A stretch of DNA of 64,000 nucleotides from Escherichia phage AV101. This document shows, piece after piece, positions 2,370 through 63,908 of the stretch (positions are counted from its first letter, which is position 1; every line of letters starts with the position of its first letter). The DNA lies in the sequence record OQ973471.1, one strand, 5' to 3'. A model generated the notes under the pieces. That model saw only the letters and a list, made by a program, of their open reading frames with translations, searched no databases and had not been told where the DNA came from. The position numbers were made by a program, and so were the translations under genes.

Positions 2370-2467
2370 GATATAGTTCCTGCTTTCAATTTGTGGCGAA
2401 TGCCAATGAATTACTGGGAAGTATAGGGGAGGGCGTTTCAAAAGTAAAGCCCCTCATTGAGGGGCTT
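2370..2467 (-). promoter_or_regulatory. Terminator - early promoter - conserved leader cassette (PeSL-like)
   Basis: Hairpin AAAGCCCCTC-AATG-GAGGGGCTTT, then TTTACT-17nt-TATACT, then TTGAAAGCAGGAACTATATC-ATG. Confidence 0.5.
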
Positions 2468-2474
2468 TGACAGA

Positions 2475-3812: not shown

Positions 3813-3882
3813 GTTTCTTTCCTGATTAATAAGGGGTGATCTCTCACCCCTGATGATATAACGGTAGTAGGTTTAGACCAAT

Positions 3883-6165: not shown

Positions 6166-6250
6166 AGCGATCCTCGGTTTGTGTTATAAGCAGGTTTTAT
6201 TATACGCCGCCCTCGTAGATTGAAGGCGGCGGGGAGTGTTGGTGAGTTAC

Positions 6251-8664: not shown

Positions 8665-8830
8665 GATGTAATTCCTCATAATGTAGTTGGTTCATTTCAC
8701 TTTTCATTCGGCGGTGTGTTACCGCCCTATGTGAACTATAATAGTGTATCATTATTGAAGAGTAAAGTCTTTTTCAATAAATTTTTAAATAATTTTGAAG
8801 TATTTTAAAAGGCCTCATTCGACGAGGCCT
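8665..8830 (-). promoter_or_regulatory. Terminator plus sigma70-like early promoter and structured leader
   Basis: Hairpin AGGCCTC..GAGGCCT with T-run; TTTACT-17nt-TATTAT; leader hairpin GGCGGT..ACCGCC. Confidence 0.45.
8811..8830 (-). terminator. Rho-independent terminator
   Basis: AGGCCTC-GTCGAAT-GAGGCCT followed by TTTTAAAAT. Confidence 0.55.
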
Positions 8831-9065: not shown

Positions 9066-10120
9066 CGCACTTTCCTCAGTTCAGCGAATTGTAATGATGC
9101 GGCCATACCTTGGTAAACGTTCTTGGCGATCAGCTTCAGGAGGTCTTGTATGGACATGTTGCCCTTTGATGGCATGACCATGTCGTTGATATCCTTCCAA
9201 GGAACGTCTGGTGGGAACAGTACAACCTTGACACCTTTATCTATCATCTTCTGAATACCGTCACACACCTGCGGGTTCCGGTACTGATTATCAGGGATAT
9301 AAATGTCGCCCTTCACGCTCAGTAGATCAGCATCGGCCGATGCAAGACAGTTGGGTAGGAACAGGCTGTCAATCGGACCTTCCACAACCAGCTTGGTCTT
9401 GTGAATGTTCACCCGGTCTTCACCATACACCTTAGTGTCTTCATCCTTGGGCTTGACTGTTGCGTAGCGCAGTGTCGCACTCTTGTCGAATGCACGCCCC
9501 TGAACGATCTTCATGCGACCATCCTGAGTCCAGAACGGAATCACCAGCCGCTCATCGTCGGGGATCTTCAGCTGCTTCTCAGGGTTCGTTTCGAACTGGA
9601 GTAGATCCTGGCGGAAGTGCTGTGTGTAATACAGGAGGGTCAAAGTGCTCTCCGGCAGTCCACGCCACTGTACGTACTGTCGAGCCTTATGGTCAGGCGG
9701 TAATAGATCAAGCCGTAGCATATTGCCGAGGAGGCTCTCGTCGCGTTTCGCCGCCACTGAGCCAATACGGGCGGTCTGTGTTAGCTTTGGTAACGGCTTC
9801 AGGGAAGGAAGTGGTCTGCCCGACGTATCACCCAGCAGACGGAACTTCTCCATGTTGTACTCTGTTGAGAGGCGTTCGTCGAACTTCTTCAGCCAGAACT
9901 CAAATGACCAGCCATTCATCTGGTTGCAGTTATGGCACTTGAACCGGAAGCAGTCATGATCCCGATCATAGAAGAAGTATCCACGGCGCTTGTTAGCAGA
10001 CTTCGTGGAGTCACCGCACAGAGGGCAACGGAAGTTCGCAACAGAACCCACGCGCTCCCACTTGAACTTGTCAAGGCGGGGCGACAAGTTGTTGATAAAT
10101 TGCTCGTCAAGAAATTTCAT
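9062..10120 (-). CDS. gp61: DNA primase, T4 gp61-like
   Basis: 352 aa, N-terminal zinc ribbon CPLCGDS...CHNC, length close to T4 gp61. Confidence 0.75.
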   Translation of the reverse strand: MKFLDEQFINNLSPRLDKFKWERVGSVANFRCPLCGDSTKSANKRRGYFFYDRDHDCFRFKCHNCNQMNGWSFEFWLKKFDERLSTEYNMEKFRLLGDTSGRPLPSLKPLPKLTQTARIGSVAAKRDESLLGNMLRLDLLPPDHKARQYVQWRGLPESTLTLLYYTQHFRQDLLQFETNPEKQLKIPDDERLVIPFWTQDGRMKIVQGRAFDKSATLRYATVKPKDEDTKVYGEDRVNIHKTKLVVEGPIDSLFLPNCLASADADLLSVKGDIYIPDNQYRNPQVCDGIQKMIDKGVKVVLFPPDVPWKDINDMVMPSKGNMSIQDLLKLIAKNVYQGMAASLQFAELRKVR

Positions 10121-10391
10121 TTACCCACCCGGTACGGAAAAGGATAGATTTATACTCTTCCACCATGTCCTGGTCGTAATCAGTTTGACGGGAATACGAT
10201 TGGGCTTCAGCACAATCAGCGCCAAGTTCCACAGAAGCCATAGCGGCTTGCATGTTCAATTTATTTTTGTACTCAGAAACCATCCCATGTCTTTCCAAAT
10301 ATTCACTTGCCTGGATAAATCGTTTTTCTCTGGCGAACATTAGACCATAGTTGATTTCTGAAAACTCTCTGTTGTATGCTTTTAATGACAT
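10107..10391 (-). CDS. Hypothetical protein
   Basis: 94 aa ORF upstream of primase. Confidence 0.35.
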   Translation of the reverse strand: MSLKAYNREFSEINYGLMFAREKRFIQASEYLERHGMVSEYKNKLNMQAAMASVELGADCAEAQSYSRQTDYDQDMVEEYKSILFRTGWVNEIS

Positions 10392-10400
10392 AATGACCTC

Positions 10401-11012
10401 TTAAATCGCTGGTCTCTGGAACACTTCGGTCACAGTATAGTCTACACCACGACTTTGAGCTATACACAGTTGACGCCAAGCCCCATACAGGATATTCTGT
10501 TCCCCAGCCATGTTGCGCTCAAAGTGGGCGAAGCCGTCGAGGAGTTCCATGTAGCTGCGCATATGCCGGGTAATGGTTCTTCCTCTCTTGATCTGTTCAT
10601 CAAGGTACTTCTGATAATGCTCTGGTGATGACAATAAAGAGTACTTCATGTCTGGCACATGAACTGGCATCAGGGACTTGCGGGGTGTGAAATAGAACAG
10701 CCCCCACTTCGGCGGTAGGTCTTCAACCCTGATCACGTCCTGAGGGCAGACATAAAAGCGGTATGCGCCCATGCCCGTCGTCGGATCCATGCGATGAGGC
10801 TTCTTCTTGTCGGTAAGGAAATCAGAGCGAGACACCTTCACTTCCATCAGGATAGAGCAACCGCCGGAACGGAACCCGATGGCATCAGGTGATTCTTTGT
10901 TGTCAAACGAATTTGGCTCGATGAAGACAGCGCCGCAGTTCATGCGACCGCGCAGGTAGTTGGCCGCGATCTCACATCCTTCGCGGTGTGACGGGATAAA
11001 GATTTTGCTCAT
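10401..11012 (-). CDS. Putative PD-(D/E)xK nuclease (MmcB-like)
   Basis: D...EVKVSRSDF motif; AAGGAAAGGA RBS before ATG at 11012. Confidence 0.4.
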   Translation of the reverse strand: MSKIFIPSHREGCEIAANYLRGRMNCGAVFIEPNSFDNKESPDAIGFRSGGCSILMEVKVSRSDFLTDKKKPHRMDPTTGMGAYRFYVCPQDVIRVEDLPPKWGLFYFTPRKSLMPVHVPDMKYSLLSSPEHYQKYLDEQIKRGRTITRHMRSYMELLDGFAHFERNMAGEQNILYGAWRQLCIAQSRGVDYTVTEVFQRPAI

Positions 11013-11069
11013 TGTCCTTTCCTTTTGGTGAATAATGAGCAAAATTATATGCCTTTATTTCGTATTGAC

Positions 11070-14947: not shown

Positions 14948-15283
14948 TTATTTTTGAACTTGGGCTACAGACATCGCCCAGAGCGGGAGGGTGTGGGGGT
15001 CCAGGGCTTCCAGTAGATATTCGACGCGCTCTGACATGATACCTTCAGGGAAGTTTACTTCTTCTGGTTCGTTGTTGGCCGTCCAACCCAAGGTCAGTCC
15101 TTCAGCGTGATGGATGATATAAACGAAGTCGCCCGATTCGTAGTCCTTTTCCATCAGGTCGAAGAAATGGAAGATTTCTTCGTCGGAGAAGTAGTAGATG
15201 CGAGGTACAGAGCCGTCAGCAAAGTGCTCAGCACCCTGGAAGGCAAACATGTCATCGGCAGTGAAGTTCTTGAGTTGTGTCAT
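14948..15283 (-). CDS. Hypothetical protein (111 aa)
   Basis: Start at conserved leader GCAGGAACTATATC-ATG; upstream promoter cassette. Confidence 0.45.
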   Translation of the reverse strand: MTQLKNFTADDMFAFQGAEHFADGSVPRIYYFSDEEIFHFFDLMEKDYESGDFVYIIHHAEGLTLGWTANNEPEEVNFPEGIMSERVEYLLEALDPHTLPLWAMSVAQVQK

Positions 15284-15378
15284 GATATAGTTCCTGCTTT
15301 TCAAGTTGGTGTCGTACTGCTTATGGAATGAAGTATAGGGAAGGATATTGAAGAAGTAAAGGGGCGTTTGCCCCTTTT
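15284..15378 (-). promoter_or_regulatory. Terminator - early promoter - conserved leader cassette (PeSL-like)
   Basis: Hairpin AAAGGGGC-AAAC-GCCCCTTT, TTTACT-17nt-TATACT, TTGAAAAGCAGGAACTATATC-ATG. Confidence 0.5.
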
Positions 15379-15389
15379 ATTGAATTATT

Positions 15390-16025
15390 TTACGGCGTTG
15401 TAACCACCGGGATATGAGACCGAATTCCAGCGATGATGTCCTTCAGCTGAGGCTTCCATCCATCCACCAAACGGGGTAGAGCGATAGCACCAGGCTGGAC
15501 CAAAATGATGTCGCTGCCTGTGATATTGTGCTGAGGGAACTGGGCAAGGTACTGCTCCATGGTGACACCCTCATCAATCAGAACCGCACCGACGTCAGAC
15601 GATGCGTAGGTCGCACCCAGACCGTCAACGCCCCATGCCAAGATACCCCAGTCAGGGATGTTGGCTTCAGATGTGATGGTGAATCCAAACACAGTGTTCA
15701 GGGAGGTGAAGGAATAGACATCGTGAGTTATGTCATACACCAGATACCCCTTGGCCAGCATATCGGCAAATATCGCGTCCGTATCGCCAGCAGCCGGAGT
15801 CGGTACAGTAAACAACAGCTCACCCTCAGGAGGAGCAGGATACGTGCCGAGGGCATAGAGGCACCACGCATCGATGCACTTCTTGATAAATGCCTCCGGT
15901 GCGACATAATCAGCAAGGCGAACCGTACCTGAGTACTCTGATACGATAATGCCTTCCTTCGCACCCTGTAGAGCAATGAAGACCAAGATATGTTCATATC
16001 CGGCCTGAGATGGAGTGATGTTCAT
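15390..16025 (-). CDS. Hypothetical protein (211 aa)
   Basis: TAATG stop-start overlap with upstream gene indicates coupled start at 16025. Confidence 0.45.
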   Translation of the reverse strand: MNITPSQAGYEHILVFIALQGAKEGIIVSEYSGTVRLADYVAPEAFIKKCIDAWCLYALGTYPAPPEGELLFTVPTPAAGDTDAIFADMLAKGYLVYDITHDVYSFTSLNTVFGFTITSEANIPDWGILAWGVDGLGATYASSDVGAVLIDEGVTMEQYLAQFPQHNITGSDIILVQPGAIALPRLVDGWKPQLKDIIAGIRSHIPVVTTP

Positions 16026-16639: not shown

Positions 16640-16735
16640 GATGGCGTTCCTTATGTTTGTCGACTTGCAGCTCGATTGAGCCTCCTGACAGGGGTTAAAA
16701 GATAAAGGGCACGTGATATTTAGTGCCCTTCAGCC

Positions 16736-26431: not shown

Positions 26432-26487
26432 GATATAGTCTCTCAAATGAAAGGGTAGCTTTATGATAAGCCGCCCGAGGTTATTGA

Positions 26488-28406: not shown

Positions 28407-28485
28407 GGTGATTCTCCTTATTTCATTGGATGAAATGATAGGCGGCTCACCATGTTGAGTAAAGGGATTCAATAAACTATCGTAT

Positions 28486-28935
28486 TCAGAAACGGGTATC
28501 GCTGACCGTTCTGTATCGCACACCCTGAAACTGTTTAGCGAGTTTAACAAATTCCATCGCTGGCAAATCAACTTTGTAGACCTTCATGCGCTGTTTGCCG
28601 TCCATGTTCAACGCAGCGACAAATCGGTGAGAACCGTCAACAACGTAATTGTCAGAAGATACCCAAACTCGACCCATAGGTTTCTTATTTCTGATCTGCT
28701 TCATAATCTTCCAGACCTTCATTTTATTGATTTCGTTCTGGGTAAGACGAAGTATTTTGATGGGCACTTGCACAGCATCTATGGACACGCCGTTGTCTTC
28801 AAGATATTTGTGAAAATCTTCTTGTTTGTCGGCATCGATTTGTGGCATAGAAGAACGCGAAAGCCCGAGGTTCCCAACAGGAATCCTCAGGCCGTTAATG
28901 ATGTTCAACCAGTCAATAAAAGATGTAAGGAACAT
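28486..28935 (-). CDS. Hypothetical protein
   Basis: 149 aa ORF. Confidence 0.4.
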   Translation of the reverse strand: MFLTSFIDWLNIINGLRIPVGNLGLSRSSMPQIDADKQEDFHKYLEDNGVSIDAVQVPIKILRLTQNEINKMKVWKIMKQIRNKKPMGRVWVSSDNYVVDGSHRFVAALNMDGKQRMKVYKVDLPAMEFVKLAKQFQGVRYRTVSDTRF

Positions 28936-29786: not shown

Positions 29787-29810
29787 GATATAGTCTCTTG
29801 GTTTCAAATG

Positions 29811-29832
29811 GGCGGGGTAATCATACCCCGCC
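29811..29832 (-). repeat. Conserved leader hairpin, copy 1
   Basis: GGCGGGGTA-TGAT-TACCCCGCC immediately upstream of RBS. Confidence 0.6.
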
Positions 29833-29838
29833 GTGGGT

Positions 29839-30345
29839 TTATAGAGTAACAAGTGATACGGTAAAAACCATCGTCCCGTCTGTTGCCATTTTTCTTGAAA
29901 CTGGTATGACGCGAGGCTGGCAGAATATCCATTCTTTCTCCATGGACGCCAAGTCCAGCATATCCATTTCTGATTCATCGCCTTTGTTCACAAATTTTTC
30001 TAGAGAACCATAGACATTAAGCCCCTCCGGGAGTCTGTTTCGATGTTTGTAACAAATGCGGGCAACAGCTTTGGTTCCGTACGATTTAGAAAATTTTTTG
30101 GCCACATGCTTCAGTTCACTGAAGCTAAGACAAGAGTCCCATGTCTGGAACATGTCGCCTCGTTCAAACATTATCTCTAAACGCGCAACGTCCTCTTTAG
30201 GCAACCCACGATAAAGTGTGGTCGTCTGTGGTTCGCGCAATTCTTGCACCAGATCGCGGACGGCAGGGGAAACAGTACCGGGGCGCATGATGTGGGACTT
30301 ATCATGGACGAGGTAAAATAAATCTTGAATTTGTTGATCGGTCAT
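29839..30345 (-). CDS. Hypothetical protein (168 aa)
   Basis: Start at conserved leader; hairpin upstream. Confidence 0.45.
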   Translation of the reverse strand: MTDQQIQDLFYLVHDKSHIMRPGTVSPAVRDLVQELREPQTTTLYRGLPKEDVARLEIMFERGDMFQTWDSCLSFSELKHVAKKFSKSYGTKAVARICYKHRNRLPEGLNVYGSLEKFVNKGDESEMDMLDLASMEKEWIFCQPRVIPVSRKMATDGTMVFTVSLVTL

Positions 30346-30369
30346 GGTATAGTTCCTGCATTTCAAATA

Positions 30370-30391
30370 GACGGGGTAATCATACCCCGCC
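30370..30391 (-). repeat. Conserved leader hairpin, copy 2
   Basis: Same 20-nt core CGGGGTAATCATACCCCGCC about 560 bp from copy 1. Confidence 0.6.
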
Positions 30392-30404
30392 CAAAGTTAT
30401 AGAA

Positions 30405-30644: not shown

Positions 30645-30766
30645 GTTATAATCTTACCTTTCAACCCGGTGAACCCATCGTTCGCCAGTTATTGAATAAT
30701 AGGACATTCCTTAGAGGAAGTAAACCCCTAAAAGTAAAAATCCCCAACGTTTGTTGGGGACTTCTG

Positions 30767-33376: not shown

Positions 33377-33644
33377 CAGCGGCTTCGATGCGCGTCTTTA
33401 CAGAGTCCAGCATATTGTTGATAAACTCACGAGACTGCTCCAGCTGAGCCAAGAGCACATCCTTTGGAGCATAGTTCTGAATGCAAGCCGGAATACTTTC
33501 AGACGTCGCCTTCAGGTCGGTAAAACATTCTTTCAGTATCATTTGATCTCACTTAACAGAGACGACGCCCTGTTGGGATTTAATAGCGGTCTTCACAGAC
33601 ATCAGGTTTCCCTCAAAACAGGGGAGTCTCCTCCCCTTCGGTTA

Positions 33645-35309
33645 TCAGATTTGTGAGGCCAGTTCTGTCACCAGAGGAGCGGCACGGACACGCGCATCTT
33701 CCAGCGTTTGGGTGTTGAAGAACTCGCCATCACGATACACCAGCTGGTGCTGGTTGTCGGCGTCTTGCACCTGATCAAAGGTGATACCGTCAACCAACAC
33801 TAGTTTACCCTGAGAGTCTTTAATGACTTTAAGGAAACCACGCGCAGACTTTTTAGTCCCGCCTTTATCGGTCTTCGGCTCTTTGAAGATCTCACGGAAT
33901 TCACCGTTCACTTTACCAGCCGTGGCTTTCACTGCTGTGCCAGTACTGTCACGGGTGTTCATCTGGTAGGTGTAGGAACCGATACCGAACACCACGTTGA
34001 TGGAAGCGAAGTTCCGGTCAGCCAGACGGCTAAAGATCTGGTCTTCACGCGACAGGGTGATAGAATCACCGTAGATCAGGCCGATGTGCTCATCCAACAG
34101 GAAGTGCCCAGTTTCAGTCTGGGTGCCACCAAAGATCTCCCACAGGCGCTGGATAGAGCCGACCGCTTCTGAACGGCTGATGATATTACGGTCATCTGCC
34201 ATCAGAGAGTTGATCGTGCCTTCGCCTGTGATCAGGTGATAGGTGTTCGTCTCTTCGATGTGGATGACTTCGGTGCTGCTGGACACGCCGCTGATGTTCA
34301 GCGTAGCGCGGTCTTTGAACCCCTCGATACGGTAGCCGCCGACGATGTGCACAGGGTCACCAGAGTCAGGGCGGATCACGACTTTACCATTGCGCGCCAT
34401 GATAATGTCTTTCAGGCGAGGCAGATAGTCGTCGATGACCTGCCAGTAATCCCACGCATCAGACACGATGCTGACGATGCCATCAGGATACACGTCCTGC
34501 ACCAGGCGGCGGAAGGTTTCGAATTCGCCATCCTTCGTGCCCATACACATCACGGCGTGTTCGGTAGCCGCAACAGAACCAGCAACGACATAATCTTCGT
34601 CGATGTCTGCGCCATAATACTCTTCTACGAAGTCCAGGGCAGGGTTGGTGTCGGTGCCTTTGAAGAACACCAGATGACCGGAACCGGAAGACGCGGCGTC
34701 ATGCCACCCGCTCATACCACGGAAGGAGAAGTCGTGGCCTTGGTAGTCGATGAACCAATGGTCCGGTGATACTCCCGTAGCGAGGGCAGCTTTCACCATC
34801 AGTGCCTTGTAATGCAGAGCGATGGTGGCGTTCGTCATCGGCTTCCAGATCTCAGAGCTGAACACAGTCTCCAGATAGTTGGTCAGCCAGTAGAACTCCG
34901 GCAGGGTATTGAACATCACATACACCGGAACACCATACGGACACATGGTGCCTTCAGGCAGCGCACGGACTTCGATAGGCAGGTAGCCGAGGTCATGCAG
35001 GGCTTCAATATGCTCTGTGCCGACGCGGCCTGGACCCAGGACTTTGTTCATGCGACGGGCATACTTCTTCAGCACCTTGGTCTTCGGGCGCTGGAAGAAT
35101 GCTTCGTCAAACAGTTCGTGGAACCAGGTCATGAAGCCCTGGATACCCCAGACCACCACGCCGTTCTTCGGCAGGTGAGAGTTGAAAAGTTTGTTAGAGC
35201 GCGGAGTTCCGTTGGAGAACACCAGCTCACTGCCTTCAGGGAACTGATAGATGTGCCCCGATTTGTAGAAGTCGATCGCATGGATTGGGTCTAAGTGGCG
35301 CATGCTCAT
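33645..35309 (-). CDS. nadV: Nicotinamide phosphoribosyltransferase (NAMPT/NadV)-family enzyme; possibly a nicotinamide ADP-ribose transferase of an NAD+ reconstitution pathway
   Basis: 554 aa; N-terminal DFYKSGH motif and overall NAMPT-like layout; 4-bp overlap with Prs-like gene. Confidence 0.8.
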   Translation of the reverse strand: MSMRHLDPIHAIDFYKSGHIYQFPEGSELVFSNGTPRSNKLFNSHLPKNGVVVWGIQGFMTWFHELFDEAFFQRPKTKVLKKYARRMNKVLGPGRVGTEHIEALHDLGYLPIEVRALPEGTMCPYGVPVYVMFNTLPEFYWLTNYLETVFSSEIWKPMTNATIALHYKALMVKAALATGVSPDHWFIDYQGHDFSFRGMSGWHDAASSGSGHLVFFKGTDTNPALDFVEEYYGADIDEDYVVAGSVAATEHAVMCMGTKDGEFETFRRLVQDVYPDGIVSIVSDAWDYWQVIDDYLPRLKDIIMARNGKVVIRPDSGDPVHIVGGYRIEGFKDRATLNISGVSSSTEVIHIEETNTYHLITGEGTINSLMADDRNIISRSEAVGSIQRLWEIFGGTQTETGHFLLDEHIGLIYGDSITLSREDQIFSRLADRNFASINVVFGIGSYTYQMNTRDSTGTAVKATAGKVNGEFREIFKEPKTDKGGTKKSARGFLKVIKDSQGKLVLVDGITFDQVQDADNQHQLVYRDGEFFNTQTLEDARVRAAPLVTELASQI

Positions 35310-36160
35310 TTTACACGTCCTGTATTTTCAGTTTTGAAAGGAAGCCCGTCGGCGGTGATGTTCTCCCACCAGACAGTGTCGGCATACACAGCATCATAGA
35401 TCCCGTCGAAAACAGAGAGACCTTTGCTGAAGATGCCATGGGTAACGAAGAGCGTCATGTGCTTAGGCTTGTGCTTCTGAAGCTCTTTGCCTAACTCAAC
35501 GAACGTGCGCCCACCGTCGCAGATATCATCGACCACCACCAGATAGCGGTCTTTGATCAGTTCAGGGTTTGTAACACTCACCCCAATGATCTCACCAGTC
35601 TTGGTATCGCGGTTCTTATGGCCGTAGACAACAGGAACACCGTCCAACGATAGGCTGAGGGCTTCGGTCTTCTTAGTCGCGCCGCCGTCAGGAGCTACCA
35701 ACACAGCGTTGTTCCCACGGATGAACCAGCCCAGATACTGACGCACGATGTAATCTTGCGGGACAACATGAACGTTGTTGATCAGAGAAGACACAACATG
35801 GCTGTGAGGATCTTTGATTACCACGCGGTCAAAGTTCATGCTATTGATGAATTCAGCCGCCCACTTCACAGACAGAGGCTCACCGAAGTCACAATGGCGG
35901 TCCTGGCGAGCATACGGGAAGTAAGGGATATACGCATGGAATGTCGTCAGACGGTCCACGTTACTCAGACCACGAACGGCGTTTACCAGAAGCGCCAGCT
36001 CAATGAAGTCGGCTGATGATTTGATGTGAGCATCAATCACCACGTTCTGAACGTGGCCGATAGGGATACCAGACTTTTGGATCTTGATATGTTCCTCACC
36101 ACCTGGGAAGGTGAAGTGTTTGTAGAACACATCTTGGTCGTTCAATTTCAAACGAAACAT
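35306..36160 (-). CDS. prs: Ribose-phosphate pyrophosphokinase (Prs)-family enzyme; possibly an ADP-ribose pyrophosphokinase
   Basis: 284 aa; YFPYARQDR, DGGATKKT and VVVDDICDGGRT motifs of the Prs/PRTase fold. Confidence 0.8.
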   Translation of the reverse strand: MFRLKLNDQDVFYKHFTFPGGEEHIKIQKSGIPIGHVQNVVIDAHIKSSADFIELALLVNAVRGLSNVDRLTTFHAYIPYFPYARQDRHCDFGEPLSVKWAAEFINSMNFDRVVIKDPHSHVVSSLINNVHVVPQDYIVRQYLGWFIRGNNAVLVAPDGGATKKTEALSLSLDGVPVVYGHKNRDTKTGEIIGVSVTNPELIKDRYLVVVDDICDGGRTFVELGKELQKHKPKHMTLFVTHGIFSKGLSVFDGIYDAVYADTVWWENITADGLPFKTENTGRVK

Positions 36161-36268
36161 AATGCAGCCTCATGGTGTATTGTACAGCCGTATTATACTG
36201 TGACGCACAAATTGAAACGCCCAGCAAATTCACTGGACGTTATTGATATTGAAAAGGTTTTGACAAAC

Positions 36269-39692: not shown

Positions 39693-39811
39693 GATGTAGT
39701 CTTCCTGTTTCAGTTCAAATGTGCGCCCCGTTTGCCAGGGCGCTTCGTTTAAGTGAGGTCAATAATACGTTGAAAAAAGTTATTGAAGAATGAAGTAAAG
39801 GGAATCTTTAT
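39693..39811 (-). promoter_or_regulatory. AT-rich upstream region, stem-loop and conserved leader upstream of the 672-aa gene (no clean -35/-10 promoter)
   Basis: TTTACTTCATTCTTCAATAAC block, hairpin GCGCCC..GGGCGC, leader GAAACAGGAAGACTACATC-ATG; -35/-10 spacing does not fit. Confidence 0.4.
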
Positions 39812-43180: not shown

Positions 43181-43645
43181 TTATTCGCTTTTTGCCTTCG
43201 TAGGCCGGATGATGTATTTTGGAACCAGCTTCCATTCAGGAACCTGATCGTGTTTAACCACTTTAATGCGAGACATATCGGCTGCTTCGGTGACCTGCTC
43301 AGGATGAATGACCTTCACCATGTTCCACTGCTCCAGCAGCTTGATGATTCGGTTCATCCTCAGGACATCTTCGCGGTTAAATCCGTTGTAATGCCCGTCC
43401 AGCATAAATAGATGCTTAAAGTGGACGATATAATACTTGCCGCACTTATGAAGAATATGGCAAGTTTGATACAGAGTATTCGGCTCTTGGCGCGTGTTTA
43501 CCCCAATTCGACTCAGTGTTTCCTTGATCCCCAGGAATATACCTGGCCGATCTTGGTTCAATTGAACTTCAACCATACAATCAACGATGCTGGCCTCATC
43601 GTTGACTGCTGAAATATTCAATATGTCTAGCGTATTACGCGCCAT
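43181..43645 (-). CDS. regA: Translational repressor RegA
   Basis: KETLSRIGV...LYQTCHILHKCGKYYIVHFK...EWKLVPKYIIR matches T4 RegA. Confidence 0.8.
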   Translation of the reverse strand: MARNTLDILNISAVNDEASIVDCMVEVQLNQDRPGIFLGIKETLSRIGVNTRQEPNTLYQTCHILHKCGKYYIVHFKHLFMLDGHYNGFNREDVLRMNRIIKLLEQWNMVKVIHPEQVTEAADMSRIKVVKHDQVPEWKLVPKYIIRPTKAKSE

Positions 43646-45091: not shown

Positions 45092-45173
45092 TTTCAGCCT
45101 CGTGTAGAAGAATCATTTCAAATAGGCGGGGAACGCCCCCGCCCACACATTATAGCATCAGGCTGGAGATTGA

Positions 45174-48061: not shown

Positions 48062-48089
48062 ACAAAATCTCCCAAGGATTATGGGGTAT

Positions 48090-48836
48090 TTAGTGATCCG
48101 GCCAGACTCCATTTTGTTCTTTGTCCATGCGATGATACAGACGAACACGCTCAAACATCTTAGTCAGAATGTCATCACGGTTGAACTCAATGACGGTTGG
48201 TAGAGGGGAAGACTCGTTGGCGATCACGTTGATGAGGCGGGTGATCTTGACGCCGAACATCTGCTGGAACATGACCGAATATAAACACAGCTGGATACTG
48301 TAATCCTCGATCATGCCCCGCGTCTTCATGGTGTTTGATGTCTTGAAGTCGATGACAGCAGGTTTACCCTCATAAACCCCGATAAGGTCTACACGACCTG
48401 CAAGACCAAGCACCTCGCTATATAATGGGATCTCCTGAGCATAGATCTTTGTCATCTTGTTCAGGTAAGGGAACAGCTGCTTGAACATGAACATGTATTC
48501 GCCAGCCGCTTCCAACACTTCTTTCATTGGGCGGTTCTTTAGATACAGTTCACACGCAAGGTGCAGCTTCTCCCCTCGGTCAGCACAGCGCATGGTCTCA
48601 AGATCAGCGGCCTCTGCGCCCAGCTTCTTCCTCCAAGACTCAAGCCATTCATGATCTCCAGTGCGTCCCAGCATAGTCGTGACGGATGTCAGTTTAACAC
48701 CAGACGGTGAAACGTAATGACGACCATTCTCCGTCGTAACACACTCCAGTTCCTTATGAGGAAGTTCGTATTGCTGGAATGTGTAATGACGGTTTTCGAA
48801 GTCATTCAGCTTGCGTAGATCCTGGAGAGATGCCAT
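48090..48836 (-). CDS. Putative PD-(D/E)xK (RecB/Cas4-like) nuclease
   Basis: GRVDLIGVYEGKPAVIDFKTS and QLCLY motifs. Confidence 0.45.
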   Translation of the reverse strand: MASLQDLRKLNDFENRHYTFQQYELPHKELECVTTENGRHYVSPSGVKLTSVTTMLGRTGDHEWLESWRKKLGAEAADLETMRCADRGEKLHLACELYLKNRPMKEVLEAAGEYMFMFKQLFPYLNKMTKIYAQEIPLYSEVLGLAGRVDLIGVYEGKPAVIDFKTSNTMKTRGMIEDYSIQLCLYSVMFQQMFGVKITRLINVIANESSPLPTVIEFNRDDILTKMFERVRLYHRMDKEQNGVWPDH

Positions 48837-52347: not shown

Positions 52348-52677
52348 TCACAGATCCTGACACTGATCGCAGTATTCATCGTATGTGAAGGACTCATCAC
52401 ACAGGCCGTCCACGATCATAGCCGCTTTTGCTTCAGAGAAGATCGCGAGAGTGATATCATTGTCATCCAAGTCTTGACGGATGAACGGTTCATCTTCAGG
52501 GCGATTGAAGAAGACTTCAGCAGGTTCGATATAGAACTCCGCTTCAAGATCTTTGCGGGTTTGATGGCCAGTGATTCCCATCACCCACTGGCGCATTTCA
52601 GAGATGGTTTCCAGCTGCGGGTTGCTCAGCACGTTGGTTTTGGTTGCGTCGAATGCTACAAAGCCTTTAAAAGTCAT
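52348..52677 (-). CDS. Hypothetical acidic protein (109 aa)
   Basis: Preceded by a promoter cassette nearly identical to the one at 15284-15378. Confidence 0.4.
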   Translation of the reverse strand: MTFKGFVAFDATKTNVLSNPQLETISEMRQWVMGITGHQTRKDLEAEFYIEPAEVFFNRPEDEPFIRQDLDDNDITLAIFSEAKAAMIVDGLCDESFTYDEYCDQCQDL

Positions 52678-52760
52678 GATATATTTCCTTCATTTCAGAG
52701 TCAGTGTTGTGCTGCTTATGGAATGAAGTATACGGGGTTTATTGAAGAAGTAAACCCCGT
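52678..52760 (-). promoter_or_regulatory. Early promoter - stem-loop - conserved leader cassette, near-identical copy of 15284-15378
   Basis: Shares TTTACTTCTTCAATA and TATACTTCATTCCATAAGCAG with the 15284-15378 cassette. Confidence 0.5.
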
Positions 52761-52778
52761 ATTCAACTTTTATTGAAT

Positions 52779-53015
52779 TTATTTAAAACGGTCAGGAAGG
52801 GTGTCGTGAACCTCGGCGCTCAGCACCAGAAACTTACCATCCGTCGTTGGGAAGCAATAGTCTTTCTTGATGTGACGCAAATGTTCAGCTACAGCTGCCA
52901 CGCAGTCATCTGTCACGTCAGTCTTCTCACCAACCCACATGCTGGTTTTGGTGTTCAACCTGCCCTGGAATATAGTACCAGTGAGAGGACTTGTGCCGAT
53001 CTTTTTGATAATCAT
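52779..53015 (-). CDS. Hypothetical protein
   Basis: 78 aa ORF followed by terminator hairpin. Confidence 0.35.
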   Translation of the reverse strand: MIIKKIGTSPLTGTIFQGRLNTKTSMWVGEKTDVTDDCVAAVAEHLRHIKKDYCFPTTDGKFLVLSAEVHDTLPDRFK

Positions 53016-53023
53016 GTTTGACC

Positions 53024-53467
53024 TCAGTTGTTAATGCGGAACAGTTGTGGATAACCACCTGGATGCCCTTCTCCGGTCACGAAGACCTCGTACCGGGCAC
53101 CTTTAACCAAACCGGGCAAATTGCCTGAGTCGAGTAGATATCGGATTTTATCCATAGTACCCATCCAGGACTTAGCAGGTTCAGCTTCAGCCTCTCCACG
53201 ATTGAGGACGAGTTCACCTTCAGAATAATACTTCCCGCTGTCCTTCATGTAGTACAGCTTGATATGGATATACTGAGGGGATGGGACCAAACGCCAGCCG
53301 TCATCAATCAGATCCTGGCGATCATTATCCAGGGACTGGTAATCGATCTCACCAGACGCCAGACCATAGCTGCGCATGTAGCGGAACTTCTCAACACGGT
53401 CTTTCACGTCAGAGATGAAGAACTCCTTCGTGGCTGGACTGATGAAAATGTATTTCTCTTTTGACAT
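53024..53467 (-). CDS. Hypothetical protein (147 aa)
   Basis: Start at conserved leader. Confidence 0.4.
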   Translation of the reverse strand: MSKEKYIFISPATKEFFISDVKDRVEKFRYMRSYGLASGEIDYQSLDNDRQDLIDDGWRLVPSPQYIHIKLYYMKDSGKYYSEGELVLNRGEAEAEPAKSWMGTMDKIRYLLDSGNLPGLVKGARYEVFVTGEGHPGGYPQLFRINN

Positions 53468-53484
53468 GATATAGTTCCTTCCTT

Positions 53485-53808
53485 TCAAAGAATGATGTGT
53501 TCGTCGATATCGGACTGCGTTGCAATCTCCCAGCGGACGATGTTCTCGGTTGTGATGAAATCACGGTTCAGGTGAGAGGCTGGTACATACACCATCGTAT
53601 TGACCATGAAGTAGCGCTGCTCATTGTTCCAGGAGTCAACATAAGCCTCAATAAGGCACACTTCGATCACTTCGCCTTTCGGATTCTTCACAGTCTTTTT
53701 CAGATACATGACACAGCCCTCGGTAGTAGACGGGGCAATAATACCTCTCACCCCGTTATTGAAATGTTCTTTTAGTTCAAGACATATTTGATCAGTCCAC
53801 AATTCCAA
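53485..53808 (-). CDS. Hypothetical protein
   Basis: 107 aa ORF. Confidence 0.4.
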   Translation of the reverse strand: MELWTDQICLELKEHFNNGVRGIIAPSTTEGCVMYLKKTVKNPKGEVIEVCLIEAYVDSWNNEQRYFMVNTMVYVPASHLNRDFITTENIVRWEIATQSDIDEHIIL

Positions 53809-55244
53809 ATCCTGACCAGCCCGGCTTCGGTTGCTAACTGGCTTTCTGTTTTGCCTTCTACGTCATACCCCATGCGAGCAAATGAACCTTTTCTGAAACC
53901 GAATTTGTGCTCACGCATAAATGTGCCAGGCTTGTGATATTTGTAGTCTGGCTTCTGTACTTCCTCTTCTACGAATCCGTGGGATAGGTAAATGTTGGAC
54001 AACCTGCTTGCAACACACCTATCCCCAAAGGAATAGATTTTGGTGTCGGCAAATTTTCTTCTGAAGTGTGAAAGAAGTTTACTGAATGCCCCGTGGCAAT
54101 CATTAGAGGCAAATCTGACTAATTCCAGGCCATCTTTCCTTTTAGTGAATAGCATCACGGCTTGTATGACCCCACTCTTGTCAATTAACGATAAATGGTG
54201 GGTAGAAGAAACGGAACCTTGTATGTGGTGGTTGTCTAAAAACTCCCTCAAGCCGCTTATATTCCCCCAAACGACTTTGTGTTGGCGAGCATATGACGCA
54301 GGCGTTTTAATGCCAAGTTTAGCTTTCAGAAGAGATTTGACCACTTCCTGTTTCTCAACCCATTCATCTTCCCAGATGTGAATCAACTGGATACCCTGAG
54401 ATTCACATATTTCAGTCTTTTCCAGGTGATAATGTTTCTCTTTAAAAACTTCTGAATGCCAGTACAGGCCATTAAATTCAATCGCCAATTTGTGTTCAGG
54501 GCAATAGATATCCAGTTGTTTACCGGATAATATACTGTAATCAGAAACAGTGTTTACAACTCCCATTGAGGTGAGAAACTCGGATATTTCCTTTTCATAA
54601 GAAGATTTCTTGTTCCTGATAGAACCATTGCTGAACAACGCACGTTTTAGTATGTTCGAGTTTTTCATAGGGTTGTCAACACCATAACGTTCTTGTAACG
54701 TTGCCAACGCCTTCTCCCTCACACCAGGTAATTGTAGTGTGGAGCAGCTTCCGTATTTGGATATATTCGAAGTCTCTATGACTTTCCGACCAATCCCACC
54801 TTTACACATAGAAACCTGATAACATTCTTCAGAACAATATGTTCTGTAATCTTTATTATTGATGTAAAAGTTGGTTTCCTTGGAACACACCGGGCATATT
54901 TTCACGGCTCTATTGTACAGCCAAGCTGTGACTTTACAAGCCAAATCTTGTAGGGTGTTGTGGGTATTGGCGAACACTAAAAGGTCTACATTGATGTGCT
55001 TCATAAGCAGTTCAGATTTGCATTTTTGGATATCCAATTTGTTGTTCTTGGTAAACATATATTTGTAGAAAAATTGGCGATATGATTCCTCGTCAGATAA
55101 TTCATTCACTGCTTCAAGGAAACCTTCCGGGAGGTTCTTTAGGGTGTTCGATGCGAAGGTCTTGCAAGCATCTGAACAAAATTTCTTATCTTTCCTGGAT
55201 GCTTTGAACTGTTCATGGCAGACACTACAGATTACCTGATACAT
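53772..55244 (-). CDS. Putative free-standing endonuclease: N-terminal zinc ribbons plus C-terminal Vsr/PD-(D/E)xK-like nuclease domain
   Basis: CSVC...CSDAC and CPVC...CSEEC ribbons; LAIEFNGLYWHSE ... IHIWEDEW nuclease-like motif; GGAGGAG RBS; own promoter after gp23 terminator. Confidence 0.5.
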   Translation of the reverse strand: MYQVICSVCHEQFKASRKDKKFCSDACKTFASNTLKNLPEGFLEAVNELSDEESYRQFFYKYMFTKNNKLDIQKCKSELLMKHINVDLLVFANTHNTLQDLACKVTAWLYNRAVKICPVCSKETNFYINNKDYRTYCSEECYQVSMCKGGIGRKVIETSNISKYGSCSTLQLPGVREKALATLQERYGVDNPMKNSNILKRALFSNGSIRNKKSSYEKEISEFLTSMGVVNTVSDYSILSGKQLDIYCPEHKLAIEFNGLYWHSEVFKEKHYHLEKTEICESQGIQLIHIWEDEWVEKQEVVKSLLKAKLGIKTPASYARQHKVVWGNISGLREFLDNHHIQGSVSSTHHLSLIDKSGVIQAVMLFTKRKDGLELVRFASNDCHGAFSKLLSHFRRKFADTKIYSFGDRCVASRLSNIYLSHGFVEEEVQKPDYKYHKPGTFMREHKFGFRKGSFARMGYDVEGKTESQLATEAGLVRIWNCGLIKYVLN

Positions 55245-55300
55245 AATTATTCTCCTCCATATGGTATCTAGTATAACCTGTTCGATAATATGAACAAATA

Positions 55301-57617: not shown

Positions 57618-57662
57618 GATTGTTTCCTTCTGAACGATTTTCAGTATTTAGTGAGGCTGAAT

Positions 57663-58338: not shown

Positions 58339-58644
58339 TTAACTCAGTCCCATCATACGACGGAACTTCATTGCTTTTTTCTTACGACGCTCGATTTTGC
58401 GCTGGTATCCCATACCCATGCGTTTCTTGGCTCGGATCGCCTTGCGGTTGCCCAGCTTGCGAGTACGGCGCTCACTGGCGACCATCACCTCACAACGGGA
58501 ACCATCCGCAGACAGTTTGAAACCAGGAGCACACTGCAGACGGCGACGGCGTTTGCCTTTTGCGTTCACCTTGTCAATGACTTTCTGCTCATCCATGCGG
58601 GAAGCCAGGAAATCAGCGAACGTTGCAACTTCTTCGATTTCCAT
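58339..58644 (-). CDS. gp68: Prohead core protein (gp68-like by position), highly basic
   Basis: 101 aa Arg/Lys-rich; located between gp67-like and gp21. Confidence 0.5.
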   Translation of the reverse strand: MEIEEVATFADFLASRMDEQKVIDKVNAKGKRRRRLQCAPGFKLSADGSRCEVMVASERRTRKLGNRKAIRAKKRMGMGYQRKIERRKKKAMKFRRMMGLS

Positions 58645-60624: not shown

Positions 60625-61158
60625 TTAGAGAGACTTGTCTGAGATGGCCTGGAAGTAACGCAGGTCAACAGTGAACTGAGTATAAGAGTCCATTGCAGAC
60701 ATGTCCAGTTCCAGCTGACCGAGGTTCTGAGGCCAGGTGCCCTGAAGGGTCCAGGTCTTGGTGACGTTGTCATTCGCATCCAGTAGTTCCATGATTACAT
60801 CACGGAAATAATCATCTGGGTTAGCAGACGCACGGTTGTTGTTGCTGCCGTTGATATACTGCTGCCAGACTTCGAATGCGTTGTACGGGGCGTTGTCCAC
60901 AACGTTGATAAACGTTACAGGCAGAGCCTCGAAGCGGCGGTCACCTGGGAATGGAAGTTCACGGCCACCCCATGGGACAAGTATTTCCCCGAGCTGGCCT
61001 GTTGGGGTATTTGTGGTAACCGCCAACAGCGAAACATCACGGATAGTATCGCTTCCAGCCACGAAGGAAGGGAAGTTAACAGTCACACGCCAACGGTGTT
61101 GGCGCTGAACGCCACCCCCGCGTGACATAGCTGCTCTGAATTCATTAACTGTAGCCAT
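60625..61158 (-). CDS. gp19: Tail tube protein (T4 gp19-like)
   Basis: 177 aa; C-terminus QLELDMSAMDSYTQFTVDLRYFQ resembles T4 gp19 QLDWDSNNEIQTFEVTLALDYWE. Confidence 0.8.
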   Translation of the reverse strand: MATVNEFRAAMSRGGGVQRQHRWRVTVNFPSFVAGSDTIRDVSLLAVTTNTPTGQLGEILVPWGGRELPFPGDRRFEALPVTFINVVDNAPYNAFEVWQQYINGSNNNRASANPDDYFRDVIMELLDANDNVTKTWTLQGTWPQNLGQLELDMSAMDSYTQFTVDLRYFQAISDKSL

Positions 61159-61178
61159 TATAGATTCTCCAGAAAGAG

Positions 61179-61877
61179 TTACACAATTCTAATTAGCTGC
61201 CAACCCGTCGTATTCAAACGCTCTGCGGTCGCAGTTTTCCTATGATACACAGACGGTGGTGGAACTGGAATACCCTTGTCGATGTAATCATAGAGTGCTG
61301 AATATTTAAGTCCCAACCTCTCCACATATTCACGACAGTTCCCGTGGATTTCGTGTTCTTCGCCGGAAGGAGATACCAATTTGAATCGCTTGGCATTGGA
61401 GTTCTTGGATCCGGTTCTTGCTTTGGCGAATTCAGACAGGCTCTTTGAGAAAGAACGCTTGACCCCGACCTTGCAGTGTATTATCTCTCCTGTCGACCAT
61501 CTAGGGTCATCACAGTCTACGAGGCCGATACGCTCTCCGGTCGATGCATCAATAGCGCCGGTCTTGCCAGTGAATGTTGCACCATCACCGCCCCAAGTTT
61601 TGTTGTACCCTTTCTGAGTTGACATGTGGGTGCCATGCTGCTTGATCAGGATGATCTCTAATTCTTTAAGATCTTTTATGGACTTGGTCTGGGCAATCAC
61701 TTGGAACGAGAATGATTCTTCACCGTGCTTGCGAATAGCTTGATGGATACCGTAGTCGGAACCATTTCGAGCGCTGTTACAATGTTCCCACCACCTATGG
61801 CTTGGGTCTCTTGTGGTGATACCGATATACGCTTTCCGATTGGCGAGATTTGCAATTTTATAAACACTTCCGATCAT
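61179..61877 (-). CDS. GIY-YIG homing endonuclease (Seg-like)
   Basis: VYKIANLANRKAYIGITTRDPSHRWWEH GIY-YIG motif; inserted between gp18 terminator and gp19. Confidence 0.75.
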   Translation of the reverse strand: MIGSVYKIANLANRKAYIGITTRDPSHRWWEHCNSARNGSDYGIHQAIRKHGEESFSFQVIAQTKSIKDLKELEIILIKQHGTHMSTQKGYNKTWGGDGATFTGKTGAIDASTGERIGLVDCDDPRWSTGEIIHCKVGVKRSFSKSLSEFAKARTGSKNSNAKRFKLVSPSGEEHEIHGNCREYVERLGLKYSALYDYIDKGIPVPPPSVYHRKTATAERLNTTGWQLIRIV

Positions 61878-61928
61878 TTCGATGCTCTCTTAACAAAAAC
61901 GATCTATTTTAACCTGTAGAGATCATTG

Positions 61929-63856: not shown

Positions 63857-63908
63857 AATCTTATTCCTTCTCTGTAGAGTTTCGCTCAATTTGAAAGATA
63901 TTTAGTGA

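Follow-up and report, generated by a model that had tools for sequence, protein, structure and literature searches.

In a stretch of 64,000 nucleotides of Escherichia phage AV101 (OQ973471.1), hereafter called the window, we examined three intergenic sites, cassettes 1, 2 and 3, each of which holds a GC-rich hairpin, a promoter-like motif and a leader with a ribosome-binding site (RBS) immediately ahead of a gene start. The window is ~97% identical to Escherichia phages RPN242 and A221 and ~94% identical to Shigella phage Ag3, and by sequence likeness the phage is Agtrevirus-like (Ackermannviridae, Aglimvirinae, Agtrevirus), i.e., a ViI-like phage. The genes of the window serve nucleotide metabolism, replication, recombination and the building of head and tail, nearly all of them lie on the minus strand, and intergenic DNA makes up ~6% of the sequence. 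RPN242, Ag3 and A221 were used as the relatives for the comparison of gene junctions, with each junction inspected, and a wider alignment took in Agtrevirus, Kuttervirus (CBA120), Limestonevirus (JA15) and Taipeivirus (Magnus) genomes together with IMG/VR contigs; the mean identities of these genomes to the window are 76% for CBA120, 87% for JA15 and 75% for Magnus. Our own gene map, built on open reading frames (ORFs), was crude, and the annotation of the relatives was used instead.

Anatomy of the cassettes and their recurring motifs

The three cassettes and their parts are as follows.

2370-2474, minus strand: cassette 1, behind the glutaredoxin gene, with hairpin 2446-2468, -35 box 2443-2448, -10 box 2420-2425, leader 2370-2389 and the ATG of a 153-aa ORFan at 2367-2369
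15284-15389, minus strand: cassette 2, from the stop codon of a DUF7270 gene (TAA, 15390-15392) to the ATG of a 111-aa ORFan (15281-15283), conserved in four genera
15358-15377, minus strand: terminator-like hairpin of cassette 2, AAAGGGGC-AAAC-GCCCCUUU, -13.6 kcal/mol, z -4.4; its 3′ T-run begins the -35 box
15332-15360, minus strand: putative promoter of cassette 2, with -35 box TTTACT (15355-15360), a 17-nt spacer containing CTTCAATA and -10 box TATACT (15332-15337), predicted start near 15325
15284-15304, minus strand: shared leader of cassette 2, TTGAAAAGCAGGAACTATATC, with the Shine-Dalgarno (SD) sequence AGGA at 15292-15295; the crossover site of the orf112 indel described below
52678-52778, minus strand: cassette 3, from the stop codon of a DUF7446 gene (TAA, 52779-52781) to the ATG of a 109-aa ORFan (52675-52677)
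52730-52762, minus strand: 12-bp stem-loop of cassette 3, AUACGGGGUUUA/UAAACCCCGUAU, which encloses the -35 box (52749-52754) and overlaps the -10 box (52727-52732), with no U-tract after it; invariant in eight genomes

Our search confirms the sigma70-like promoter pattern TTTACT-(16/17 nt)-TATACT that a preliminary description of this DNA had placed at these three sites: the pattern TTTACT-N{16,17}-TATACT has exactly three matches in the 64 kb, all on the minus strand (2420-2448, 15332-15360 and 52727-52754), and none in 100 dinucleotide-preserving shuffles. These shuffles, together with Markov expectations for the other motifs, ruled out a chance origin; k-mer counts over the whole window were dominated by coding bias and became informative only when limited to the intergenic gaps. 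The same description held the layout to be identical at all three sites. Each site does contain the promoter motif, a stable GC hairpin (folding z-scores from -3.9 to -5.8) and the leader, but the arrangement differs, in that the stem of cassette 3 brackets the -35 box, overlaps the -10 box and lacks a U-tract, whereas the hairpin of cassettes 1 and 2 comes after the stop codon of the preceding gene and the -35 box is formed by its T-tail, in a compact overlap of putative terminator and promoter. The tails that follow the stems are UUUACUUUU and UUUACUUCUU in cassettes 1 and 2 and AUACUUCAUUCC, not a U-tract, in cassette 3. The hairpin of cassette 1 (-17.2 kcal/mol) is annotated in Ag3 as the terminator Torf088, and the fold of cassette 3 that includes the 12-bp stem reaches -18.6 kcal/mol (z -5.8). 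Upstream of the hairpin, cassettes 2 and 3 share an AT-rich stretch, AATTCAATAAAAG; cassette 1 is the exception, with its hairpin directly behind the stop codon. The SD sequence and the ATG form the 3′ end of the cassettes. The 15-kb and 52-kb cassettes have exact blocks of 21 nt (TATACTTCATTCCATAAGCAG) and 15 nt (TTTACTTCTTCAATA) in common, although to call them near-identical over the promoter core was an overstatement, with identity being 84% over the core and 77% overall.

When the -10 box is relaxed to TANNNT, three further sites join the family, making six copies in the window.

30696-30724, minus strand: TTTACT-N17-TATTAT, preceded by a terminator hairpin and by another, incomplete TTTACTT copy; the site is conserved in CBA120 and JA15
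28435-28463, minus strand: TTTACT-N17-TATCAT, conserved in CBA120 and JA15; in Magnus the -10 box is a weaker TACTAT
8738-8766, minus strand: TTTACT-N17-TATTAT, a pattern match bracketed by the inverted repeat TTATTGAA...TTCAATAA

The complete Ag3 genome contains nine TTTACT-N16/17-TANNNT matches where 0.8 are expected, and all nine are intergenic and on the transcribed minus strand, with two of them outside the region that the window covers. A histogram of the distance from TTTACT to TATNNT has a sharp peak at 16/17, and TTTACT on the transcribed strand is divided 9:2 between intergenic DNA (6% of the sequence) and the rest. Scanning IMG/VR with the 17-spaced motif returned 11 stretches, one of them an unrelated AT-rich contig, which are too few for statistics and supply extra alleles only. 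At 30696-30760, an intact-looking TTTACT promoter in the window, CBA120 and JA15 is immediately preceded by a truncated TTTACTTTTAGGGG copy, and the matching region of Ag3 (79794-80198) has two complete promoters separated by an extra ORF, orf139, which amounts to a 367-nt insertion of promoter plus ORF relative to the window, with the junction at 30726/30731. This arrangement may be the scar of a promoter-to-promoter deletion or of a promoter-plus-ORF insertion.

Several of these promoters contain or adjoin the word TTCAATAA, and they could, instead of being plain early promoters of the host RNA polymerase, be controlled by a phage or host DNA-binding protein that reads TTCAATAA in the spacer and the inverted repeat TTATTGAA...TTCAATAA, with middle timing or repression as possible outcomes. 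On the transcribed strand, 8 of 9 copies of TTCAATAA are intergenic; Ag3 has 26 copies per strand orientation vs 4.9 expected; the word stands in the spacer of 5 of the 9 Ag3 TTTACT promoters, with an inverted copy upstream of several; and a separate class, TCAATAA-N12-TATAAT, has the geometry of a MotA box (see below). Against such control, we identified no candidate regulator, ViI-like phages have no MotA/AsiA homologs according to Kutter et al., the AT-rich word could equally be UP-element-like or plain spacer, and cassette 1 is entirely without it; we consider a dedicated regulator of these promoters unlikely. The inverted repeat itself, TTATTGAA-N13/14-TTCAATAA, brackets the -35 box TTTACT at window 8752-8780 and at Ag3 144177-144204, 79794-79821 and 58407-58435; a dimeric DNA-binding protein could use it as an operator, or it may be just AT-rich UP-like sequence.

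The leader TTGAAA-N-AGGAACTATATC-ATG is a shared 5′ leader and ribosome-binding block. As GCAGGAACTATATCATG with up to three mismatches it is found at 2367, 15281, 30343, 52675 and 53465 (0.14 expected in the window), and as AGGAACTATATCATG with up to two mismatches at eight window sites, all on the minus strand and each at the ATG of a minus-strand ORF; Ag3, taken as a complete genome, has it at 13 gene starts vs 0.2 expected. It had been described as a conserved TTGAAA(A) leader of all three cassettes that recurs at many other gene starts: it is present at all three and does recur, but the third leader deviates (CTGAAATGAAGGAAATATATC), and only eight of the ~80 window genes carry it. The recurring RNYIM at the N-termini of predicted ORFs is a real artefact (LKSRNYIM at 15304 and LKGRNYIM at 53488, with RNYTM at 30366), and it arises at 15304 and 53488 because the TTG of TTGAAA is in frame. 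One copy occurs apart from any promoter.

53465-53488, minus strand: leader-only copy TTGAAAGGAAGGAACTATATCATG, directly behind the upstream ORF, without promoter

Scanning the whole window against Rfam at gathering thresholds yielded no family; the leader is thus no known RNA element. The leader as a promoter in its own right (TTGAAA with TATATC) was rejected, since the 9-nt spacing is too short and transcripts would begin inside the ORF; as a general explanation, RegB cleavage was likewise rejected, most copies lacking GGAG.

The leader (TTGAAA..AGGAACTATATCAUG) may have been kept as an RNA operator, e.g., for a RegA-like translational repressor (window 43181-43645) or an RNase, and not by recombination. 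The spacer between SD and AUG, ACTATATC, is conserved at eight unrelated genes though SD function does not need ACTATATC, RegA homologs are annotated in Ag3, RPN242, JA15 and Magnus, and the leader also exists without a promoter, at 53465. The target preference of T4 RegA is for AU-rich sequence around the AUG, e.g., AAUUGUUAUGUAA, and the likeness of the leader to this preference is only loose; the same scarcity of GGAG speaks against T4 RegB, which needs it; and an operator function would neither explain the leader-flanked indels described below nor exclude them. We regard an RNA operator as possible but doubtful, and it is compatible with the explanation of the promoter and hairpin that we favor below.

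Conservation in the Ackermannviridae and exchange of docked genes

A 109-nt non-coding cassette was found in 271 phage records, nearly all with hosts typical of Ackermannviridae and usually at two places per record. The wider alignment shows invariant or nearly invariant blocks, namely the AT-rich box, the hairpin stem, the -35 box with CTTCAATA, the -10 box, CATAAGCAGTACGA, TTGAA and AGGA-CTA, with the hairpin loop and the first downstream gene as the variable parts. For example, the GGGGC/GCCCC stem of cassette 2 is invariant in the relatives and its loop takes at least seven forms. Cassette 2 in CBA120, JA15 and Magnus is 81-95% identical to that of the window vs 71-90% for the upstream gene, and the core of cassette 3 is 97.6% identical in CBA120, 98.8% in JA15 and 86% in Magnus, against genome means of 76%, 87% and 75%. 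Across four genera the cassettes are conserved, and their conservation exceeds both that of the genes beside them and the genome mean. In Ag3 and Magnus, cassette 3 has the transcribed leader CAGTACGACAC, as does cassette 2, but in the window, CBA120 and JA15 it has CAGCACAACAC; so uneven a distribution suggests that gene conversion has taken place between cassettes 2 and 3, 37 kb apart.

Comparison with the relatives, proposed in the preliminary description as a check on whether the flanked genes come and go as units, demonstrated that single ORFs are gained, lost or replaced in this way, with endpoints inside the repeated elements. We identified four repeat-flanked junctions, and alternative genes docked at cassettes 2 and 3, where the endpoints of an indel or replacement fall within an element; at most other indels they do not. 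The features concerned, beyond those listed above, are the following.

30346-30393, minus strand: upstream hairpin (30368-30393, TATGAT in the loop, -18.8 kcal/mol) with ATTTGAAA and leader, flanking a 168-aa ORF
29839-30345, minus strand: this 168-aa ORF, cassette-flanked and patchily distributed, matching PHROG 832 ("RNA polymerase ADP-ribosylase", E 1.4e-14), with no Pfam match
29787-29832, minus strand: downstream copy of the hairpin (29811-29832) with ATTTGAAA and leader
52348-52677, minus strand: variable gene docked at cassette 3, 109 aa, with other genes or a remnant in relatives
53710-53771, minus strand: cassette of TTCAATAA (53756-53763)-N12-TATTAT (53738-53743) with hairpin 53730-53756, single in the window

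At cassette 2, Ag3, A221 and CBA120 contain a 91-aa ORF (orf112, 276 nt, in Ag3 and A221) between two copies of the leader, and in the window, RPN242, JA15 and Magnus one leader is joined directly to the next gene; the high-scoring segment pairs (HSPs) on the two sides of the indel overlap by 28 nt, at 15280-15307. Around the 168-aa ORF, two copies of the hairpin and leader are present in the window and in CBA120, and a single chimeric copy, without the ORF, is present in RPN242, A221 and Ag3. In RPN242 the crossover that formed this chimeric copy falls within the hairpin, in A221 it comes after ATTTGAAA, and these differing positions point to independent events. The TATGAT hairpin has, in its Ag3 copy, a compensatory change from G-C to A-U. 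The 168-aa ORF, which some Agtrevirus genomes have and others lack, shares 94.7% identity with CBA120 orf140, vs the genome mean of 76%; the 2011 CBA120 paper lists ViI-like phages as being without Alt/ModA homologs.

Several different docked genes were observed at cassette 3. Ag3 and JA15 carry a gene unrelated to that of the window at the same ATG, three further genes occupy this position in CBA120, Magnus and one IMG/VR contig, and RPN242 and A221 retain a remnant with two microhomology deletions. In phage P46FS4 an extra ORF (ORF28) lies between two leader copies ahead of the gene found in the window, with a 23-nt overlap vs the window. The docked first genes number at least five, plus one remnant, at cassette 3, and four at cassette 2. 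In RPN242 and A221 (loci L003 and L006), whose docked gene at cassette 3 is reduced by decay to the remnant, the -35 box reads TTTAAT, not TTTACT, and selection on the promoter may have relaxed there. The single TTCAATAA-hairpin-TATTAT cassette at 53710-53771 is duplicated around an extra ORF in RPN242 and A221, with a 45-nt HSP overlap at 53724-53768.

Blocks of high identity also end at cassettes: window 30787-29829 and 28935-28509 are 92-100% identical to CBA120, whose genome mean is 76%. The patch at 28509-28935 (minus-strand ORF 28486-28935, 149 aa) has flanks that are ~80% identical to CBA120 or cannot be aligned, which suggests a recent exchange of a single gene between subfamilies.

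The cassettes might instead be ordinary conserved regulatory DNA with no special role in recombination, beside which indels cluster only because selection removes those that end within genes. They form a sizeable share of the ~6% of intergenic DNA, most indel loci vs RPN242, Ag3 and A221 have no long repeat flanks, and several of these loci are homing-endonuclease insertions. At four independent loci, however, the longer allele contains two copies of the element and the shorter one a single chimeric copy, with the crossover differing between genomes; one and the same ATG, behind an invariant cassette, starts different genes in different genera; and the mosaic blocks of high identity end at cassettes. 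On this evidence we think it improbable that ordinary regulatory DNA accounts for the observed junctions.

Differences in gene presence from the 97%-identical relatives also occur with no cassette at their flanks, at 3815/3820, 8047/8049, 10121-10411, 33596-36010, 54032-55295 and 61158-61923; these non-cassette differences include a window-only 94-aa ORF (10107-10391), a NadV/PRPP-synthetase block absent from RPN242, and homing-endonuclease insertions.

Promoter-early-stem-loop elements and the interpretation of the cassettes

The likely explanation, in our judgment, is that the cassettes are composite modules of a terminator, a T4-early-type promoter and a shared RBS that double as recombination patches, by the mechanism proposed for promoter-early-stem-loop elements (PeSLs). 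The PeSL-like interpretation put forward in the preliminary description thus gains support, both from the presence of PeSL features at the level of sequence and from the comparison with relatives. These features include an early-type promoter with boxes ~17 bp apart, a stable stem-loop that adjoins or overlaps it (upstream in cassettes 1 and 2, between the boxes in cassette 3), and several intergenic copies, six in the window and nine in Ag3, beside small genes of unknown function, with the adjacent genes having no Pfam function.

In the proposed mechanism each cassette would punctuate the long leftward gene array: the GC-rich hairpin would stop or attenuate transcription arriving from upstream, with its U-tail coinciding with the -35 box in cassettes 1 and 2; the host sigma70 RNA polymerase (RNAP) would restart transcription early in infection at the T4-early-type promoter TTTACT-N16/17-TATAcT; and the leader and RBS block would hand any attached ORF a ready-made translation start. 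Blocks of 20-60 nt are found again at several intergenic sites, and co-infecting relatives carry them in nearly identical form, so that homologous crossover is possible within them, and the phage recombination machinery (UvsX, UvsY and gp46/47 homologs) would cross over there; the varying crossover points favor general homologous recombination over a site-specific enzyme. Such crossovers would delete ORFs that lie between two copies, insert or replace single ORFs at a fixed docking point, and pass cassette-bounded blocks between genera. We infer the promoter activity, its early timing, the terminator activity and the identity of the recombining enzymes.

A number of observations weigh against this interpretation. 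The promoters fit only 9 of 12 positions of the sigma70 consensus and have no TGn element, and ~40% of T in DNA from ViI-like phage virions is replaced by 5-NeOmdU, so that recognition of the T-rich boxes by host RNAP is less certain; our literature search found no transcriptome or transcription start site map for any member of the Ackermannviridae. The hairpin of cassette 3, without a U-tract, would be a poor intrinsic terminator. Of the four repeat-flanked junctions, two have their crossover in the leader and RBS block, not in the promoter or hairpin, and repeat flanks of at least 23 nt were found at only ~4 of ~20 indel loci vs the three close relatives, the remaining loci being explained by microhomology, homing endonucleases or divergent replacements. 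Viable indels must in any case end in intergenic DNA, and each docked gene was seen at one cassette locus only, i.e., no shuffling between loci was seen. Lastly, the host phage belongs to the Ackermannviridae and not to the T4-like phages proper, and the likeness to their PeSLs is one of features.

The PeSLs of T4/PST (Comeau, Arbiol & Krisch 2014, PMC4122927) have the consensus TTTACW-N17-TAYWAT with stem-loops just upstream of the promoter, and that study extended PeSLs to T4/PST and KVP40/nt-1 after RB49/phi1, with sequences that differ between lineages. Our cassettes share with those of T4/PST the identical -35 box, the stem-loop just upstream (cassettes 1 and 2), the AT-rich upstream region, the SD and ATG at the 3′ end, the intergenic position beside ORFans and the association with insertions, deletions and replacements between close relatives. 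They differ in the -10 box, as TATACT of the three main copies fits five of six consensus positions, and in having a conserved spacer word, CTTCAATA, a ~45-nt transcribed leader, itself conserved, that serves as a crossover site, and extreme conservation over four genera. For the PeSLs of RB49/phi1, promoter and terminator activity and mini-circles were shown experimentally (Arbiol et al. 2010, PMC2839356). There, too, ORFans lie between two elements and the crossover varies between loop and flank, as it does here between RPN242 and A221; the RB49/phi1 promoters differ in being near-perfect TTGACA-N17-TATAAT sequences of demonstrated activity.

Parts of the cassettes have been listed before. 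Table S2 of the Shigella phage AG3 paper (Anany et al. 2011, PMC3121705) gives Porf138 (TTttacttcttcaataactcacgTATAAT), Torf088 and Torf141 (ending ...ggggctttactttt) and Torf138/Torf165 (ending ...cattt) as isolated sigma70-like promoters and terminators, without the composite cassette or a link to gene gain and loss. Early promoters could not be identified by informatics in the CBA120 paper (Kutter et al. 2011), which also found no MotA/AsiA homologs, and the 2024 review of the Ackermannviridae does not mention promoters or transcription. A literature search for PeSL together with Ackermannviridae returned no paper joining both among its top matches, and a full-text search for TTCAATAA returned unrelated primer sequences only. 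The abstract of a 2012 Viunalikevirus paper in Arch Virol reportedly mentions "conserved regulatory sequences", and that paper may already have reported a portion of the promoter motif. On this interpretation the cassettes are PeSL-type elements, and to our knowledge no description of such elements in this family has been published.

If the PeSL-like interpretation is correct, the concept would extend beyond the T4-like phages proper. ViI-like phages are widely used in biocontrol and engineering, and their early transcription signals are essentially undescribed; the cassettes provide concrete candidates for early promoters and terminators. They would also explain how small accessory genes, including the ADP-ribosyltransferase-like one, come and go between 97%-identical genomes and move between genera, and they may offer sites where insertions are naturally tolerated and where engineered payloads would find a promoter and RBS in place.

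A second promoter-like class and a late-promoter candidate

A second and commoner promoter-like class has the form (T)TCAAT(A/C)(A/T)-N12-TAT(A/T/C)AT, i.e., TTCAATAA-N12-TATAAT.

6199-6223, 11044-11068, 26463-26487, 36192-36215, 39762-39786, 45149-45173 and 53738-53762, minus strand: sites of the second class in the window

Ag3 contains 15 matches vs 1.2 expected; 13 of these, found on both strands, lie between genes and point the same way as the gene that follows. The commonest spacing is exactly 12 (8 of 10), unlike that of an ordinary -35 box and in keeping with MotA geometry, where the box lies 12 +/- 1 bp upstream of a strong -10 box, and a GC hairpin is often placed between the box and the -10 box, or the -10 box lies in the hairpin loop, as in PmSLs. 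The class therefore resembles the PmSLs of nt-1/KVP40 and the T4 MotA middle promoters in its geometry, in its frequent hairpin and in flanking an indel, and differs from them in its box, which is TTCAATAA and not the MotA box (a/t)(a/t)TGCTT(t/c)a; the lack of encoded MotA/AsiA in ViI-like phages is taken from Kutter et al., with no search of our own.

A broader reading would make the cassettes family-wide, ultra-conserved promoter-leader "docking sites" for an integron-like exchange of accessory genes across genera and subfamilies, combined with two prereplicative promoter grammars, of which TTTACT-N17-TATAcT may be read by unmodified host RNAP and TTCAATAA-N12-TATAAT with an activator, in a MotA-like geometry of the sigma-appropriation type. 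We hold this broader reading as speculative and rather unlikely; if true, it would provide the early and middle promoters for which Kutter et al. (2011) had searched by informatics without success.

The CBA120 paper stated that the late promoter of ViI-like phages had not been identified. The word CACTAAATA is found in the window only on the transcribed strand (minus 16717-16725, 48087-48095, 57645-57653 and 63899-63907), upstream of prohead-core and tail-sheath genes among others. It is a candidate late promoter of the gp55 type, comparable to T4 TATAAATA, and in Ag3 it has four matches vs 0.6 expected, one of them upstream of gp6.

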